Positions 869 through 42,542 are shown, counted from the first letter of the stretch. The stretch: DNA of 64,000 nt from an uncultured cyanobacterium (GCA_963719515.1 CAVRCJ010000005.1:128001-192000); one strand, 5' to 3'. The notes: generated by a model from the letters alone, not told the origin. Numbers and translations are program-made.

Positions 869-1317
869 GTGACATACTCCCGACGCTCATCTTTTAGATA
901 GAGCGCGGGCTTCTTGGCTCACGCACCACAATTTAATGGATGCCGCGCAAGAAGGTGTCCTGCTTCATCTGGTCCTGTCTAGTTACGCAGCAAGCCGTGC
1001 AACCCCGATTAGATCCCATCGACAGGCGATTTGTTTAATGTCCAGGCAATGACCAACCCCAGACAGTGACGAGTATTCAATTTCCAGCTACGGTTTCTAC
1101 CGTCTGCACTGTTCACCAGCCAAGGGCTGTACGTTTGTGTCACGATAGCAGGCCGCCGCCATGAAATAGTTTGAGCTTGGTTCAATTGTACCCTTTGCTC
1201 GCCTCGGCGCTGCCCTTAATTGCCGCCTTCGGCATCCAGTCAAGGGCGCACCTCGACTCGCTCGCTTACATCCCGACGCTGATGCTGCGCATACAGCGCG
1301 GGGCTTTCACGAACTAG
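869..1317 (-). mobile_element. Non-autonomous IS200/IS605 mini-element A (449 bp, no transposase or TnpB ORF)
   Basis: Subterminal hairpins CCC(C)GCGCT..AGCGTCGGG at both ends. Minus strand starts after TTAG with CTAG and ends GTCAC, as in the element at 6103-6494. Confidence 0.8.
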
Positions 1318-3499: not shown

Positions 3500-3623
3500 C
3501 AATAGTCCGGACACTTTTCTGGGCAAGCGCTGAAACTATTGATTTCTCGTTAGCCGAGCTGCTGTAGAAGAGGCCTGAAACCCGCATTCCACTGTTAGCC
3601 ACCGAAAACTGTCCGGAGTGTTG
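3500..3623. mobile_element. 124-bp MITE with TIRs and 4-bp target duplication TCGT
   Basis: TCGT|CAATAGTCCGGACACTTTTC ... GAAAACTGTCCGGAGTGTTG|TCGT. Confidence 0.7.
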
Positions 3624-4387
3624 TCGTGGGAGACACTGTCAATACCCAAAAACTCAGGCGGCCCCGCCATGCGGCCCCGCCAGTTCAGATCGTCATACAT
3701 CTGTGTCGAAACGGCATTCAGCAGATCCAGTATCGTCTTGGGGTTTGTTTCATAGGCTACGGCGATCGTAAAGTCCACTCGCGACCACGACCGCGTCAGG
3801 TTCTTTACCTCAGAGATAGCGCTGTTGGGAATTGTGATCAGCTGCCCTTCGCCGTCACGGAGTTGAGTGATGCGCAGGTTCAAGCTCTCTACAAACCCAC
3901 CCACATCCCCAATACTAATCACATTCCCCTCGGCAAACTGATCCTCTAGGAGAATAAAGCAGCCGTTGATGAAGTCTTTGACTAAGCTTTGGGAGCCAAA
4001 TGAAATCGCGAAGCCAATCACCGCGCTACCTGCCAAAATAGACGCCGTGGAAACGCCCATAAAATTGAGCATCAGAATTATGCCCAAACCCACAAAAAGA
4101 ATGGTGGTCAGATCTTCCAGTACTCCTGAAATTGTCGAGATTCTTAGCGCCCGGCGTTTCGCTTCTCCTAAAGAAATAAAGCTGTAGTCTTCCCAGTTAT
4201 TCGCGGCACTGTTGATTAGTCCGTGGCCAATACGAATCGCCAGGCTCACCCCAAACCCGACGAGTAAAAGCTCAATGGGCAGTCCAAGGAGCCAGTTCCT
4301 GCCAACGCGCCATATGGCAACATTTGAGGTAACCCAGATTGCTCCACCTTGACGTACTCCCCGCCCTGAAGAGCGGGGATTCTGGAA

Positions 4388-5512
4388 TCAAGCAGCGATC
4401 GCAGGCTGAGCCTGTCTGACATCGCCTAGCCCACGGGTTGACGCCCCAACCCGTTGAATGTTTATTGCAGCATTCAAGTCTCGATCGTGATGTTCGTTGC
4501 AAATAGGGCAATCCCACTGCCGTTGTTTTAGATCTAACTCCTTCAGTACGTGCCCACAACAGCTACAAGTTTTAGAGCTGGGATACCACTGGTCGATGAA
4601 TGCTACGGTCTTGCCTTTTTTCTTTGCCACCCACTGAAGGATTTCGAGAAATTCAGCTAGGGCTAGGTCCGATATCTTCCGGCCCCATAGCCGCTGCATC
4701 CCTTTCAGGTTCAGCGTCTCAAAGTAGAGCGCATCGTAGGTATCGGTTAGCCGGTGGGCAAGCTTCCAAAACCAATCTCGTCGCCTATTGGCTATGGCCT
4801 CATGGCAGCGAGCTAGATTTAGTCTTGCCCTGTGCCAGTTTGCCGACTTTTTTCGCTTGCGCGATAGGTTGCGGCTAGCTCGGCAAAGGTCTTTGAGCGA
4901 TGCTTTCAGGAATTCAGGAGACTCGATTTGAGTACCATCTGACAAAGTGAGAAACGTCTTCAGTCCAAAATCAGCACCAGCGGTTTTACCCGTCTCGATG
5001 CCTTGAACTGGTTCAGCTTCCTGGTCCACCACAACGGCTAAAAACAGCTCACCCAAAGGCGATCGCTTCACCGTGACGGTCTTAACCTTGCCCTCTATCT
5101 CCCTTGAATTCCAATACTGGTAGACCCTGCTGCCTATCTTGATACGACCACCATTGAGCAGCTTGTATCCCGCCTGTTTTAGGGTGAACGACTTGTATCG
5201 CCTTACCTTCTGAAAGCTAGGCGGCCTATAGCCTTTGCCGTGATGCTTAAAGAACAGCTGGTATGCCTTTTCAATTCGCTGGCAGATGTCCTGCACAGCC
5301 TGAGACCCCACCAACTGCCAAAACGGATTGCGCCTCCGTAGCTTGGCAATATGAGACTGAAGTTTAGAGCAATTGAGGTGTTTGCCCCACATACGGTAGT
5401 ACCGTTTGTGGAGAGCAATGCAGTGGTTCCAAATCACCCCAGCAGCATTAATAGTGCGCTTTAGGTGCCGGTTCCGCTTGTGCTCGTATATCTTAAACTT
5501 CAATGTTCTCAT
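4388..5512 (-). CDS. tnpB: RNA-guided endonuclease TnpB (intact)
   Basis: RuvC motifs GADFG, FETLN, DRDLNAAINI and zinc ribbon CSCCG...CPIC; start MRTLKFKIY. Confidence 0.93.
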   Translation of the reverse strand: MRTLKFKIYEHKRNRHLKRTINAAGVIWNHCIALHKRYYRMWGKHLNCSKLQSHIAKLRRRNPFWQLVGSQAVQDICQRIEKAYQLFFKHHGKGYRPPSFQKVRRYKSFTLKQAGYKLLNGGRIKIGSRVYQYWNSREIEGKVKTVTVKRSPLGELFLAVVVDQEAEPVQGIETGKTAGADFGLKTFLTLSDGTQIESPEFLKASLKDLCRASRNLSRKRKKSANWHRARLNLARCHEAIANRRRDWFWKLAHRLTDTYDALYFETLNLKGMQRLWGRKISDLALAEFLEILQWVAKKKGKTVAFIDQWYPSSKTCSCCGHVLKELDLKQRQWDCPICNEHHDRDLNAAINIQRVGASTRGLGDVRQAQPAIAA

Positions 5513-5555
5513 ACTGTTTATGTTAGCATAGATGCGTAGGCATTGTGTAGGCAGT

Positions 5556-5696
5556 ATGGCAAAAGGACAGCTTAATTTAAGAGTCTCTATTAAAAGATTG
5601 CAAAAGCTTAGGGCGATTGCAAAAGAGAGGGACAAGACCATGACTCAACTGGTAGAAGATTGGATAGATCGCCTACATTTAGAGAAGCCGTCCTGA
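5556..5696 (+). CDS. 46-aa ribbon-helix-helix (CopG-like) protein divergent from tnpB; not in the ORF track
   Basis: MAKGQLNLRVSIKRLQKLRAIAKERDKTMTQLVEDWIDRLHLEKPS: alternating beta strand plus two helices. Its stop lies in the IS left-end hairpin. Confidence 0.7.
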   Translation: MAKGQLNLRVSIKRLQKLRAIAKERDKTMTQLVEDWIDRLHLEKPS

Positions 5697-6102
5697 AGGA
5701 CGGGGCTTTAGACCCATGATTTTTGGTAAAGAACTATCACCAAGAGCCAGAACACAGACCAGCGTAAAAAGCGATTGATGCCCAGCCGCCGCTTCAAGGA
5801 AAGCTGATGGTCTAACCCGTCGAGGAAGCGCGATCGCAGCTCGACCAAGCGCTCCTGCCAACCCTCTATTTCGTTTTCGCCTGTCCCGTTTTCGTCACCG
5901 TGATCACGTTCGACGACGGGCATCGACGGTGCCTCTTGGGCATCGAGTAGAATAGCAGCCTGCTCGGCCTCACGGCGCTGCAGCACTTTCCGGCGGCGTC
6001 TGAGGAGCCAGTGTAGCCACAGCAATGCAGCGGAAATAGCAGCCATTCCCGCAAAGATTCCGCTGGCTCGCAGTATCTGGGGGGTAATCTGATCTCTGGC
6101 TT

Positions 6103-6494
6103 GTGACATCCTCCCGACGCTGACAGCAAGCTGTACAGCGCGGGCTTCCTCAGTGACTCCCAGCTATTGCCGAGACATATCCTGAGATAGGTTTATACTC
6201 CGCCTGATGCCCCACGGCAGAGTTTTGAATTTTCATCTCCGCGAGGGAGGATACGCACTATGTGTCGCAGATACATTTGCAAACTGAGGAACGGGTGACT
6301 TGCAGCTTTCGCCTACGGGCCCGTCACACTCTTTGCGGGGTGTATCACCTTGCTATCTCTATCATACCAACTGCTAGCCTCAGCGCTGAGCGCACTATCC
6401 GCTGTGCATCATTTTGCGGGCGCACTTCGGCTAGCGCGACTCTCATCCCGACGCTCACCCTGACGGGTAGAGCGCGGGGCTTCCTGTCTAGTAG
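6103..6494 (-). mobile_element. Non-autonomous IS200/IS605 mini-element B (392 bp), inserted 3' of TTAG inside mscS
   Basis: Same end hairpins as element A; precise removal restores the mscS frame. Confidence 0.88.
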
Positions 6495-7481
6495 CTAAAA
6501 CCTCAGCCAGCTGCTCCTCGGTCACCGCTCGCCAGTCCTCCGCAAGCTCATCAACGGACTGGCCATTAAACCGAGCGTCTAACTCGGTAATTGTGAGAAT
6601 ATTGACGGGTCGCGAGAGGTCATCATTGGTGACTTGAAGAATCGTCGCGCCGTTTAAAACAGAAATCGAGACCTCGGCAGAATCACTATCGGCCAGTCGC
6701 TCTACCGCACGTTTCAGATTAGCTTCAATCAGCTCTGCCCGCAGCTCAACTGGATATCGGTTCTCGTCGTACTCACCGTCGCGGGTATATACCGTAGGCG
6801 CTGCGACTTGAAATAAGTCCTGCCGCAGCAGTGGCGATCGCACTGGGGCGGTTTCAATGCTGCCTAGACGCGTGACGGTGCTGGGCACATCGTGGGGCCG
6901 TGCATCAGTAGCTCCTGGAGCGAGTTGGCCATGAGCAGGGTCCATCGCTCCAGACGTTGTCCAAAACATGAAAGCGACGAGCAGCGCGCGAAGTATAAGC
7001 TTCCGTTTAAAGTGGCGGCGAAACATAAAAAATACGGGTGAAAGTCTTTAAATAGGTCGGCACCTAAGTTGCTTCGCCCGTCACAATACCACAGGACTCA
7101 GCCGGTGACACAGTCAGTCCATCAACGCGCGCGTGAGGAAGCTTACGAAGTCGTGGTTTCAACATTGGAACAGCTGCGCCAAAGCACTGATTGCTGGCAT
7201 TACGATAGAGGCAGCTAGGTTGCTCGAAATTTCTGAAGGCGCTTCTGAGGCGATACCGGATTTTCCGGGAATGGAGGTGGACTTTGAAGTCGAATTCTCA
7301 GCCGTGGGCTTTTCAGGGCAATATGGTGATTGCCAATACCCTGCTTCAGAATGATCATCCAAAGTTCAACTTAGTGCAGTCGCTGGCGCAGCAATCCCAC
7401 CTCCGACGCGGCGATCGCCATGCTGCGACACGATGAGGCGATCGCATTTCTGCTGGCGACCTCGGCCATTCAGCCCTAACT

Positions 7482-8399
7482 ATGTCTAATCTTGCCGCCT
7501 CCCGTCGCCCAAAACTAGCGATTCTGCTGATCACCGCCGCTGCCAGCCTTGGCATCGCTGCTCGGCTCTTTCTTTTAGGGGCAGCAGGGCAACTCATTTT
7601 CGTTCTGACGCGGGTCGTCATGCTCGCCCTACCGCTGGCCTGGTTTATCTGGGTTGATAAAGGCAAGCTCAGCCTGTCGTCCCCCTCAAAGCGACAGTGC
7701 CTAGATGGAGTCATCCTGGGGACCATTATGTTTGGGGTTATTCTTGGAGCCTACGGGCTGGTGGGGCAGCGCTGGATTGACCCGGCTGACGTCCGGCTAA
7801 AAGCAGAGCAGATTGGCCTGGCTCAGCCTCTGCTTTACCTAGCAAGCGCCATATACTTCACGCTCATCAATGCCCTAGTCGAAGAATATATCTGGCGCTG
7901 GTTTCTGTGCCGGCAATGCGCGGCGATCTTTAGCGGCGCTATCGCAATATATTTTGCCTCTCTCTGCTTCACGCTCCACCACATTATTGCCCTGGCTGCC
8001 TATACGGGGTGGCTCGTGGTAGGTGTGGGTTCCCTTGGCGTCTTTGCCGCCGGTGCGATTTGGTCGTGGTGCTATTTGACCTACCGCTCGCTGTGGGTCT
8101 GCTACATCAGTCACCTACTGGCAGATTTGGCGATCGCGCTTGTGGGGTGGCACCTTTTATTTGTTGCAGCCCCCGCCCTCTTGATCCACATTCCGCCCTT
8201 TCAATCCCTGGCTGGCGAGCAAAAGGGTCTAGCAGCGATTTTAAGAAAAATCGGGATGGCGGGATTCGAACCCACGGCCCCTTCGTCCCGAACGAAGTGC
8301 GCTACCAAGCTGCGCCACATCCCGAAGCGCTTGTACGCTTTAGCTTATCATAAGCCCATGGGAACCGCCGCTACCCGCATAAACAGACTGCCAAGATAG
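7482..8399 (+). CDS. CPBP (CAAX/Abi) family intramembrane glutamic endopeptidase; true 3' end uncertain
   Basis: EEYIWRW, FTLHH, SHLLAD motifs and multiple TM segments. The ORF tail runs antisense through the tRNA and is probably spurious after ~8200. Confidence 0.8.
   Translation: MSNLAASRRPKLAILLITAAASLGIAARLFLLGAAGQLIFVLTRVVMLALPLAWFIWVDKGKLSLSSPSKRQCLDGVILGTIMFGVILGAYGLVGQRWIDPADVRLKAEQIGLAQPLLYLASAIYFTLINALVEEYIWRWFLCRQCAAIFSGAIAIYFASLCFTLHHIIALAAYTGWLVVGVGSLGVFAAGAIWSWCYLTYRSLWVCYISHLLADLAIALVGWHLLFVAAPALLIHIPPFQSLAGEQKGLAAILRKIGMAGFEPTAPSSRTKCATKLRHIPKRLYALAYHKPMGTAATRINRLPR
8251..8324 (-). tRNA. tRNA-Pro(CGG)
   Basis: CGGGATGTGGCGCAGCTTGGTAGCGCACTTCGTTCGGGACGAAGGGGCCGTGGGTTCGAATCCCGCCATCCCGA: cloverleaf with anticodon CGG; CCA not encoded. 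Confidence 0.96.
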
Positions 8400-8516
8400 C
8401 TACGCCTTCTCATATGGGCTGAGGCGGTGATATCAACGGCTCAACTTGAGGGCGCAGGGAGCGATCGCTGCCAGACCGGCATCCCCATCGCTCCCACAGC
8501 GCTTAAATCCAGCGGC

Positions 8517-39801: not shown

Positions 39802-42542
39802 GTGGCGTTGGGCAACTGGATGCGTCAGGCTTTTGGAGCGCTTGCAGGAAGCAATTATCGCTGGAGCCCTGAGGCAGAGGAGGTGGTGGGTGACCTGCTG
39901 CGGGCGCTGCGGCGTAAGCGCGGGTTTGGCCTATTTTTTGTGCAGTGCAGCCCTGCCCAAGGGCAGCAGGTGATGGCGGCTATTCAGGAGCGACTGCCTC
40001 AGAAGCGGCTGGCGGAGTTTGAGCTAGAGCGCGATAGCAAGACGCTCTATGGTGAGCTGCTGGAGAGCTATCGGGCGGAGCCGTTTGAGGTGGCTTGCGT
40101 GACGGGGGTAGAGCAAGCGCTGTATGACTATGAGGATACGAAGCGCATTGCGGGGTGGAGTTCGGAAGAGATATATAACTATAGCTGGAAGGGGCTGCCG
40201 CCGCTGCTAAGCCACCTTAACCGGCAGCGAGAAGCGTTTGAGGCCAATCTTCCTGTTGCATTACTTTTTTTGGTGCCGGGATTCGTAATTGACTATTTCG
40301 TTCAACGAGCACCAGATTTCTTTGATTGGCGCTCAGGTTTTTTTAGGCTATCTCCTAGAATCGGAAGATGCGGCGAAAAGCTATTTGAGGAGCTAACCAG
40401 TGAAGAATTTGAGGAATATAAAGAACTATCTTCAGAGAAACGTCTTCAAAGAATTCTACAGATCAAAGATTTATTGAAGTCTAGCGATTTAGAAAAAGAG
40501 CAGCAAGCGCAGATGCTGCGAGAGCAAGGACGCTTGTTTAGCAGTGGTGATGATTTCGAACAGTCTTTAGATTGCTACAGTCGCGCAATAAAATTTCAGC
40601 CAGATTGTCATGAAACATTTAGAAGCAAAGGAATTGTACTACGTAATCTAGAACGATACGAGGAGGCGATCGCTGCCTATGACACCGCTCTCAACATCAA
40701 GCCGGACAATCACAAGGTGCTCAACAACAAAGGAATTGCGCTATATCGTCTAGAACGATACGAGGAGGCGATCGCCGCCTATGACGCCGCCCTCATCATC
40801 AAGCCGGACAACCACTATGCTCTCAAAAGCAAAGGATTTGCGCTACGGAATCTAGAACGATACGAGGAGGCGATCGCCGCCTATGACGCCGCACTCATCA
40901 TCAAGCCGGACTTCCACGAGGCGCTCAACATCAAAGGAAATGCGCTACGGAATCTAGAACGATACGAGGAGGCGATCGCCGCCTATGACGCCGCCCTCAA
41001 CATCAAGCCGGACCTACCACGAGGCGCTCAACAACAAAGGATTTGCGCTAGATGATCTAGAACGATACGAGGAGGCGATCGCCGCCTATGACGCCGCCCT
41101 CAACATCAAGCCGGACGACCACAAGGCGCTCAACAACAAAGGAAATGCGCTAGGTAATCTAGAACGATACGAGGAGGCGATCGCCGCCTATGACGCCGCC
41201 CTCAACATCAAGCCGGACAAACACGAGGTGCTCAACAACAAAGGAATTGCGCTATATCGTCTAGAACGATACGAGGCGGCGATCGCCGCCTATGACGCCG
41301 CCCTCACCATCAAGCCGGACAACCACGATGCGCTCAACAACAAAGGAAATGCGCTAGATAATCTAGAACGATACGAGGAGGCGATCGCCGCCTATGACGC
41401 CGCCCTCAACATCAAGCCGGACTACCACGAGGCGCTCAACAACAAAGGAATTGCGCTAGGTAATCTAGAACGATACGAGGAGGCGATCGCCGCCTATGAC
41501 GCCGCCCTCAACATCAAGCCGGACAAACACGAGGTGCTCTACAACAAAGGAAATGCGCTATATCGTCTAGAACGATACGAGGAGGCGATCGCCGCCTATG
41601 ACGCCGCCCTCACCATCAACCCGGACAAACACGATGCGCTCAACAACAAAGGAAATGCGCTAGATGATCTAGAGCGATACGAGGAGGCGATCGCCGCCTA
41701 TGACGCCGCCCTCACCATCAAGCCGGACTACCACGGGGCGCTCAACAACAAAGGATTTGCGCTAGGGAATCTAAAACGATACGAGGAGGCGATCGCCGCC
41801 TATGACGCCGCCCTCAACATCAAGCCGGACTACCACGGGGCGCTCAACAACAAAGGAACTGCGCTAGGGAATCTAAAACGATACGAGGAGGCGATCGCCG
41901 CCTTTGACGCCGCCCTTAACATCAAGCCGGACCTCCACGATGCGCTCAACAACAAAGGACTTGCGCTAGCTGACCTAGAACGATACGAGGAGGCGATCGC
42001 CGCCTATGACGCTGCTCTCAACATCAAGCCGGACAAACACGGGGCGCTTAACAACAAAGGAAATGCGCTAGCTAATCTAGAACAATACGAGGCGGCGATC
42101 GCCTCCTATGACGCTGCTCTCAACATCAAGCCAGACCTCCACAAGGCGCTCAACAACAAAGGAAATGCGCATATGACCTAGAGCGATACGAGGAGGCGAT
42201 CGCCGCCTATGACGCCGCCCTCAACATCAAGCCGGACACGAGGCGCTCAACAACAAAGGAATTGCGCTAGGGAATCTAGAACGATACGAGGAGGCGATCG
42301 CCGCCTATGACGCCGCCCTCATCATCAAGCCGGACAAACACGATGTGCTCTACAACAAAGCCTGCTGCTACGGACTACAGGGTCAAGTAGACTCAGCCCT
42401 CCTCTGGCTAGAAAAAGCGATCGCCCTCGACTCTGAATATCGCACTATGGCTTCAGCTGACAGCGACTTTGACTCTATTCGAGACAACAAGCGCTTTCAG
42501 CAACTGCTCCATGCCACCCAAAGCAACGGGAGCGATCGCTGA
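39802..42542 (+). CDS. TPR-repeat protein with an N-terminal globular domain (possibly an inactive P-loop); frameshifts inside the repeat array
   Basis: LNRQRE...APDFFDWRSG domain, then ~18 TPRs and the terminal YNKACCYGLQG...DSDFDSIR cap. Confidence 0.85.
40600..42360 (+). repeat. Tandem array of ~17 near-identical 102-bp TPR-coding units
   Basis: CTAGAACGATACGAGGAGGCGATCGCCGCCTATGACGCCGCCCTC recurs about every 102 bp from 40648 to 42276. Confidence 0.95.

Follow-up and report, generated by a model that had tools for sequence, protein, structure and literature searches.

A 392-bp repeat of a cyanobacterial genome as a putative omega-RNA-bearing, non-autonomous IS200/IS605 element

Introduction

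What kind of element is a 392-bp sequence that lies inside a gene for an MscS-like channel, and what would an RNA made from it do? The question is raised by a stretch of 64,000 nucleotides from an uncultured cyanobacterium (GCA_963719515.1 CAVRCJ010000005.1:128001-192000), which is called the window throughout and whose first letter is position 1. An initial annotation of this sequence had described the segment, here element B, as a mini-element with the ends of a second one, element A, and with a different structured cargo; it had proposed selection on RNA structure and had thought an IStron-like splicing function conceivable. Judged from its sequence, B is a non-autonomous, protein-less IS200/IS605 element (PATE), and it is probably a self-promoted omega-RNA cassette that is moved by TnpA and served in trans by TnpB.

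Results

Element B interrupts an MscS-like gene

For element B, 'sense' refers to the minus strand of the window throughout. The features that define the insertion are the following.

6103..6494, minus strand: whole mini-element B, 392 bp, defined by 53 full-length genome copies and by excision restoring the host frame
6495..6499, minus strand: target (or transposon-adjacent) motif, TTTAG, abutting the left end of B on its 5' side
6495..7026, minus strand: N-terminal fragment of the interrupted MscS-like channel gene, from tblastn with the intact homologues L093 and L096 and from the ORF list

The host gene goes on at 5708-6102 and then at 3536-4345. No Pfam match was found in the two host-gene fragments beside B, and the MscS-like identity is readable only from the third fragment (3536-4345) and the homologues. 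One of these, L093, is an intact MscS-like protein of 685 aa from a genome of the same family, and it reads ...EGVLEAR over the insertion site. Hence, the boundary proposed in the initial annotation, according to which removal of B restores V-L-E-A-R, is correct. An empty site at the DNA level was not obtained in four congeners, where the host gene is too diverged, and the comparison was made at the protein level instead. The copy of B runs in the sense of the interrupted gene, as had also been claimed.

The same gene is broken by a second, unrelated TnpB-only IS at ~4346-5692, the host frame resuming at 4345. This IS has a tnpB ORF at 4388-5641 on the minus strand (417 aa, OrfB_IS605 and Cas12f1-like_TNB domains). 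Its 3' end gives a weak match to Rfam HgcC (4336-4423, 22 bits, E 0.046, below the gathering score), and a 54-aa ORF on the plus strand (5532-5696), just beyond the upstream end of the tnpB ORF, has a sub-threshold DUF6364 match (18 bits against a cut-off of 27.3). The MscS-like gene is a double-hit pseudogene, which B simply inactivates by its insertion here. Elsewhere in the window there are a tRNA gene at 8251-8324 on the minus strand (Rfam RF00005, 63.8 bits) and, at 40507-42360, 15-17 tandemly repeated units of 102-bp period, 61-98% identical to a reference unit.

A blastn search with 6103-6494 against its own genome (5.28 Mb, 21 contigs) returned 97 alignments. Of these, 53 are full-length copies (31 spanning positions 1-392 and 22 spanning 1-390), and the other 44 cover the two ends only. 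The full-length copies have a mean pairwise identity of 99.0% (minimum 95.7%), and both their left and right flanks differ in every case, with no common target seen in them, which bears out the earlier description of B as a 392-bp unit with fixed ends. Every copy begins with C(T/G)ACTAGAC and finishes with GGATGTCAC (n=53). All 53 are preceded by TTAG, namely 47 by TTTAG, three by GTTAG and three by CTTAG, a tetranucleotide found at 0.23% of genome positions per strand. None of the 53 shows a target duplication, and the right flanks do not repeat the motif. On the minus strand the junction reads GTTTTAG/CTACTAG...GGATGTCAC/AAGCCAGA, the slashes marking the ends of B. Terminal inverted repeats are absent, the ends being CTACTAGAC... 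and ...GGATGTCAC. There is no protein gene within B; the sole listed ORF that lies almost wholly inside it is 78 aa long and on the antisense strand. When B was compared by blastx with the genome ORFs of at least 100 aa, only a degenerate trace of a TnpB C terminus appeared, and it coincides with two RNA hairpins, Ha and Hb, that are described below.

The ends of B are those of a resident tnpB element

6435..6494, minus strand: left end, 60 nt, with a subterminal hairpin at 6447-6478; 98-100% identical to the left end of a 1483-bp tnpB IS

The 44 partial alignments pair up, mostly 1483 bp apart and in a few cases ~1.6-1.8 kb apart, the first 85 plus-strand bases of B being 86-90% identical and the last 60 being 88-100% identical. 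They outline a cognate IS with B-like ends in ~21 copies in the same genome. The 1483-bp unit codes on its sense strand for a 398-aa protein with the Pfam domains OrfB_IS605, Cas12f1-like_TNB and HTH_OrfB_IS605, by which it is identified as TnpB; the RuvC motifs D, E, D are visible by direct reading of its sequence. Most parent copies retain an open 398-aa tnpB with these motifs. Intactness was judged from open-frame lengths, an exact N-terminal string (5 of 19) being too strict. The stop of the ORF lies 46 nt short of the end that matches window position 6103. Three IS copies of ~1.78-1.80 kb carry in addition a Y1 (HUH) tnpA, divergent from tnpB, free of stops and matching PF01797 over its full length with E about 1e-40 (C10:313500-313862, C1:305130-305492 and C5:98556-98918). 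The genome as a whole (G000, 5.28 Mb) bears a very heavy IS200/IS605 load of several length classes, with 14 PF01797 (Y1 TnpA) matches and 81 PF07282 (TnpB TNB-domain) matches, 13 of the latter in 478-aa open frames of parent type.

Both ends of B carry an imperfect hairpin, CCC(C)GCGCT(G/C)..loop..(C/G)AGCGTCGGG, in the same orientation, the right-end one lying at 6113-6144. The arms covary between the left and the right end (GCTC..GAGC against GCTG..CAGC) and also among relatives. The one-sided target motif without duplication, the hairpin ends, the Y1 TnpA and the TnpB combined place B in IS200/IS605. The initial annotation recognised neither this family nor the TTTAG target, the Y1 TnpA and the TnpB parent.

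A census of right ends of this type gave 53 B, 21 parent IS, 18 A, six copies of an A-like element of ~410 bp, two copies of another tnpA/tnpB IS, one singleton and two chance matches. The 85 nt at the right end of B are only 86-90% identical to the resident parent, and the right-end hairpin loop of B is that of relatives in other genomes (L066, L070, L079), so the cognate TnpB may not be the resident one.

Element A (window 869-1317) is a 449-bp PATE of a different lineage, which also follows TTTAG and is present in 18 copies by the right-end census. It is 69% identical to B over 127 nt (E 1e-12). The reported sharing of ends and promoter block was reproduced: the end hairpins and a block of ~75 nt that ends in a -10-like hexamer are common to both. 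No tnpB-linked counterpart of the A interior was found in this genome; a candidate parent of A at C10:892551-894500 was rejected, as it shares only the left end. The interior of A also holds a CTAGACAGGA stretch that resembles a left-end start. The notion of a family with exchangeable cargo can be kept for the common ends and promoter block and the differing interiors. It does not extend to the last ~130 nt of B, which are a conserved TnpB 3'-end/right-end module and not freely exchangeable.

The right part of B matches the 3'-end module of a tnpB clade

B is made up of the left end (60 nt), a stretch of ~205 nt that has no counterpart in the parent, and ~125-130 nt that match the tnpB 3' end and the right end. 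The last part contains the following features.

6103..6239, minus strand: omega-RNA-like module, full-length match to model R1
6197-6223, minus strand: hairpin Ha
6182-6187 with 6148-6153, minus strand: local closing stem, which encloses hairpin Hb
6158-6175, minus strand: hairpin Hb, inside the local closing stem
6113-6144, minus strand: right-end hairpin
6103-6112, minus strand: tail AGGATGTCAC, end of the module
6083..6102, minus strand: predicted guide in the flank beyond the right end, with a length taken by analogy with known TnpB systems

For comparison, 25 loci encoding TnpB relatives were fetched from cyanobacterial MAGs and isolates, labelled mostly Phormidesmis-like; L061 is not independent, since it encodes an identical TnpB. 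Of 22 loci compared at their 3' ends, 21 have a right end that finishes with (G/T)ATGTCAC or, in one case, with TTGTCAC. Among eight close relatives, conservation is at its peak between about -120 and -1, where the 15-nt bins reach 0.88-0.97 except for the hairpin-loop bin at 0.75; it ranges from 0.57 to 0.93 in the bins upstream of -120. Four helices make up the fold of the conserved stretch: Ha, whose loop GUGGGNNNUCA is 11 nt long, the closing stem UCUCAG/CUGAGG around Hb, Hb itself and the right-end hairpin. In the eight tnpB-linked relatives 95.8% of 240 cells are paired and 8 of 30 pairs are changed on both sides; none of 500 shuffles reached either the paired fraction or the count of two-sided changes, and with the 3' partners slid along as a control, pairing falls to 33-54%. 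The closing stem never varies, and covariation neither backs nor contradicts it.

A covariance model, R1, was built from the eight tnpB-linked 3' ends only, with B left out. It aligns with B over positions 1-130 of 130 with 111.1 bits, E 2.7e-28 and no non-standard pair. In the genome it scores the 21 parent ends at 142-152 bits and the 53 B copies, at full length, at 104-113 bits, against 25-43 bits for A-type elements, mostly through the hairpin. Its matches outside this genome include the B homologue of a congener, with 102 bits, and, with 61 bits, a mini-element from another genus. The latter, L060:190-623 in G008, is ~430 bp long and protein-less and has the same right-end RNA module and an unrelated 5' half; its left flank is TTTTGAG rather than TTTAG, and its exact start is uncertain. 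According to the model, B keeps every helix of the conserved 3'-end module of the tnpB clade.

On direct reading, the tail GAUGUC that precedes the flank is a possible pairing partner of the Ha loop. Three forms of the loop, related by Watson-Crick/wobble switches, can all pair in this way: B has GGCAUC, six relatives have GAUGUC, and L061, L067 and the metagenomic B variants have GACAUC. Such a pairing would be a pseudoknot adjoining the guide; a loop-tail pseudoknot is seen in ISDra2 omega-RNA structures. RNAalifold, applied to the last 260 nt of the parents, paired the tail with a coding GATGTC, and this pairing is broken in two of the eight sequences. The Ha-loop-to-tail pairing is therefore judged more consistent than the coding-GATGTC-to-tail pairing, neither being proven.

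A shared block with a predicted promoter precedes a leader without parental homologue

6361..6434, minus strand: block that recurs in element A and at one relic locus, with the extended -10 TGGTATGAT (6369-6361) at its end
6240..6354, minus strand: leader without parental homologue; 15 of 15 pairs kept in three species, nothing similar elsewhere in the genome
6341-6346 with 6270-6275, minus strand: leader stem P1, GAUACA/UGUAUC
6332-6336 with 6279-6283, minus strand: leader stem P2, GCAAA/UUUGC
6304-6313, minus strand: GAAA-loop hairpin of the leader

The extended -10 reported at 6361-6369 is present there on the minus strand as TGGTATGAT; a simple promoter scan missed it because there is no -35. 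It reads TGCTATACT in G002 and TGGTATAAT in G004, whose elements are 93% and about 86% identical to B overall, and the hexamer keeps TAnnnT in the three species (TATGAT, TATACT, TATAAT). Counterparts are GGGTACAAT at the aligned place in element A and TGGTACAAT at the relic locus, and other mini-elements have, in the same orientation, TGCTAGAAT (the A-like element) and TGATATAAT (the L060 element of another genus). The promoter of B is thus a predicted one, by consensus match only.

A motif search of the genome with the block gave 72 matches, namely 53 in B, 18 in A and one at C7; no promoter block was found upstream of any tnpB in this genome. The C7 locus (G000:C7:179600-180100, outside the window) is a single-copy relic in which the block stands behind a hairpin of a different left-end type, and this relic and A are the only places beside B with the block in the genome.

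As regards the origin of the ~205-nt non-parental part, a sensitive blastn search of the genome returned only a 76-nt match of 71% at the C7 relic and one chance match. A match to the B cargo exists in 3 of 17 genomes of the family (G000, G002 and G004), all of one genus, and the order comprises the same 17. A set of 35 metagenome loci retrieved by a 17-nt conserved leader motif was discarded as chance matches, none being B-like and two sharing a 30-nt stretch only. Several DNA sequencing runs contain 33-81% of the words of B. Between the three species the leader shows one double substitution from A-U to G-C, which recurs in a metagenomic contig, one paired insertion of G with C and four Watson-Crick/wobble switches. 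The signal is consistent, though three species make a thin basis for covariation.

Structural changes, strand and the case for an inert relic

The stem of Ha is CUCUGCC/GGCGGAG in B and GGGCU/AGCCC in the parent, with the same loop. In Hb a U.G pair has become C-G in 9 of the 53 copies and in the G002 copy. Further variants come from three RNA-library runs of two studies, with low-depth contigs from ~90% relatives that carry no information on strand or ends and in which DNA carry-over is possible. One contig of such a relative has 6203C>T together with 6217G>A, a compensatory change in Ha, and also 6202G>A, a change to G.U when read on the sense strand. In contigs from two further runs, of another study, 6217G>A stands alone; here too the sense strand has G.U, and the opposite strand has C.A. 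One contig extends 25 nt beyond the right end into its own flank; the contigs of the two studies stop at different places, and their ends and uncovered parts are not informative on transcript ends. Taken as a whole, the changes in Ha, Hb, P1 and P2 favour an RNA, or a single strand, of tnpB-sense polarity. Thermodynamics favours the opposite strand: z is -3.65 for the folding stability of the plus strand, which none of 200 shuffles reached, and -2.08 for that of the sense strand, which was reached by 8 of 200.

The claim of the initial annotation that RNA structure is under selection, on the strand it had chosen, can be upheld from these compensatory and wobble changes rather than from the stem that it had put forward. 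The alignment of all genome copies, which had been suggested as a check, yielded the Hb change; otherwise, at 99% identity, variation within the genome says little.

The same data bear on a simpler account, in which B is a passive relic: a derivative arisen by deletion or recombination and moved by TnpA, its RNA module dead, its structure inherited from a recent ancestor and its copy number the product of a transposition burst only. That purifying selection is unreadable within the genome, at 99% mean identity, would fit such a relic, as would the strandless RNA-library contigs of ~90% relatives and the differences from the resident parent in Ha and the hairpin loop; TnpA, moreover, needs the right-end hairpin anyway. 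However, the parental homology reaches ~120-130 nt, which exceeds what an IS608-type transposase needs; Ha, Hb, P1 and P2 are kept between species and metagenomic variants by compensatory or wobble changes that fit the sense strand alone; and three species retain the -10. On balance we regard a passive relic as unlikely, while still giving it some weight.

The long-range 9-bp stem

6283..6291, minus strand: 5' arm of the proposed stem, sense UUCCUCAGU, with its partner at 6146-6154; an unpaired stretch of the leader

The initial annotation had rested the case for selection on a long-range 9-bp stem. Its arms, TTCCTCAGT (6146-6154) and ACTGAGGAA (6283-6291) in plus-strand letters, are indeed perfectly complementary, the two sequences having been swapped in that description. 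As evidence of selection the stem fails, as perfect inverted repeats of at least 9 bp also turn up when the element is shuffled with its dinucleotides preserved, in 41 of 200 cases. In the sense RNA its ensemble probability is 0.03-0.06 (at most 0.064), against 0.54-0.94 for the local stem (6182-6187 with 6148-6153), and in all eight tnpB-linked relatives CUGAGG has no partner conserved in position other than the local UCUCAG. It had also been noted that the stem sits where A has its closing stem, with another sequence. By direct reading A does have CUUCUUG/CAAGAAG at this place; A's stem is, however, a local and not a long-range one. With a local partner conserved in relatives and an equivalent local stem in A, the conserved architecture is the local stem.

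The UUCCUCAGU arm is left unpaired by P1, P2 and the short inner stem, is unchanged in G002 and G004, and has no change listed in the metagenomic contigs. One could imagine that the leader and promoter cassette make B a 'guide-only' TnpB parasite, in which a pseudoknot of UUCCUCAGU with the 3' arm of the omega-RNA closing stem could gate folding, processing or TnpB loading, the promoter cassette being exchanged between PATE lineages (B, A and the relic locus). If this pairing forms, the stem of the initial annotation would be real but regulatory; we offer the idea as a speculation of low probability.

Insertion sites and other roles for the RNA

Across the restored insertion sites, 43 of the 53 copies lie outside any frame of at least 150 aa, mostly between genes or near gene ends; the other 10 lie inside such frames, seven in sense and three in antisense orientation.

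Placement of this kind is compatible with some other task, in which leader and scaffold would form a decoy or regulatory RNA, titrating TnpB or directing it to the flank as a repressor, or in which an outward promoter would mainly alter the expression of neighbouring genes. The ~130-nt leader without parental counterpart, whose stems covary, also speaks for this, and nuclease-dead TnpB relatives that act as RNA-guided repressors have been reported (10.1101/2023.11.30.569447). Against it, the resident TnpB retains RuvC D, E, D, the 53 copies have flanks that differ in every case and offer no common target, and B has no link to a particular gene class. We therefore attach only a slight probability to such a role.

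An IStron-like behaviour, with the RNA excising itself from host transcripts so that sense insertions are tolerated, can be dismissed as scarcely credible, although this copy lies in the sense orientation of its gene and IStrons with IS605-type ends and PATEs with IStron ends are on record (10.1101/2023.11.20.567912): the host gene is also broken by the second IS, only 10 of the copies lie in long frames with seven sense to three antisense, and, in agreement with the earlier remark that a group I core is missing, Rfam 15 gave no family at E up to 10 over 6053-6544 on either strand save a 16-bit snoRNA match with E=10, and no group I or group II intron or ribozyme over 4000-8500 at E up to 1.

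Discussion

Reading B as a self-promoted omega-RNA cassette implies a cycle of three steps. First, TnpA from the three autonomous copies would excise B and insert it as single-stranded DNA ('peel and paste'). Second, the extended -10 would drive transcription of an RNA of ~250 nt, comprising a structured leader of ~130 nt and an omega-RNA scaffold of ~120 nt, and transcription would leave through the right end, the flank becoming the guide. Third, TnpB made elsewhere, from the ~21 parent copies, would bind this RNA and cut the vacated site, TTTAG plus flank, whereupon recombinational repair would restore the copy. That a guide-only element is more numerous than its nuclease-bearing parent (53 against 21) would follow from this homing mechanism. 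The homing model is that of Meers et al. 2023 (PMC10055086), where PATEs are said to 'often encode omega-RNAs' and to need TnpB in trans.

The omega-RNA PATEs of Geobacillus stearothermophilus, as described in that article, are the closest likeness. They have no protein gene, share hairpin ends with a resident tnpB/tnpA IS, use a fixed short motif without duplication, keep the right-end guide-RNA scaffold and depend on TnpA and TnpB in trans. Compared with that description, B differs in its cyanobacterial host and in its 53 copies against 21 of the parent, and it may further differ in the ~205 nt of non-parental sequence that precede its scaffold, with the extended -10 and the covarying leader. 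B shows all the sequence-testable features of an omega-RNA PATE, while its expression and its use by TnpB are predictions. Particular to B are the 53-to-21 excess, the promoter block common to PATE lineages and the covarying non-parental leader.

The tnpB-only elements of IS200/IS605 are of the IS1341 type; an example of the omega-RNA or reRNA compared here is that of ISDra2. As in B, the scaffold of ~120 nt overlaps the tnpB 3' end as well as the right end, with the guide in the flank. Unlike them, B is without tnpB, and any transcription of its scaffold would start at a promoter of its own rather than being part of a tnpB transcript. Cyanobacterial MITEs, of which the Nezha family is an example, resemble B in being short, high-copy, non-coding and mobile. 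Unlike classical MITEs, with their terminal inverted repeats and target-site duplications, B lacks both and has hairpin ends in direct orientation and a one-sided motif. IStrons combine a group I intron with an IS605-type element and, as described (10.1101/2023.11.20.567912), resemble B in IS200/IS605-type ends, sites in the sense of genes and structured RNA; unlike IStrons so described, B is without a detectable intron core and without a marked sense bias in genes.

For annotation, the ~390-bp gene-breaking repeats of this genome are to be read as IS200/IS605 mini-elements and not as a new RNA element or intron, and only the leader without a parental counterpart goes beyond what is known. With the ~120-nt scaffold and the motif TTTAG, the 398-aa TnpB makes a compact nuclease and guide set that can be tested. 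For the biology of TnpB, guide-RNA-only elements, each seemingly with a promoter of its own, here outnumber their nuclease-bearing parents (53 against 21), and this excess, together with the own promoter, fits the published idea of TnpA, TnpB and omega-RNA as separable modules.
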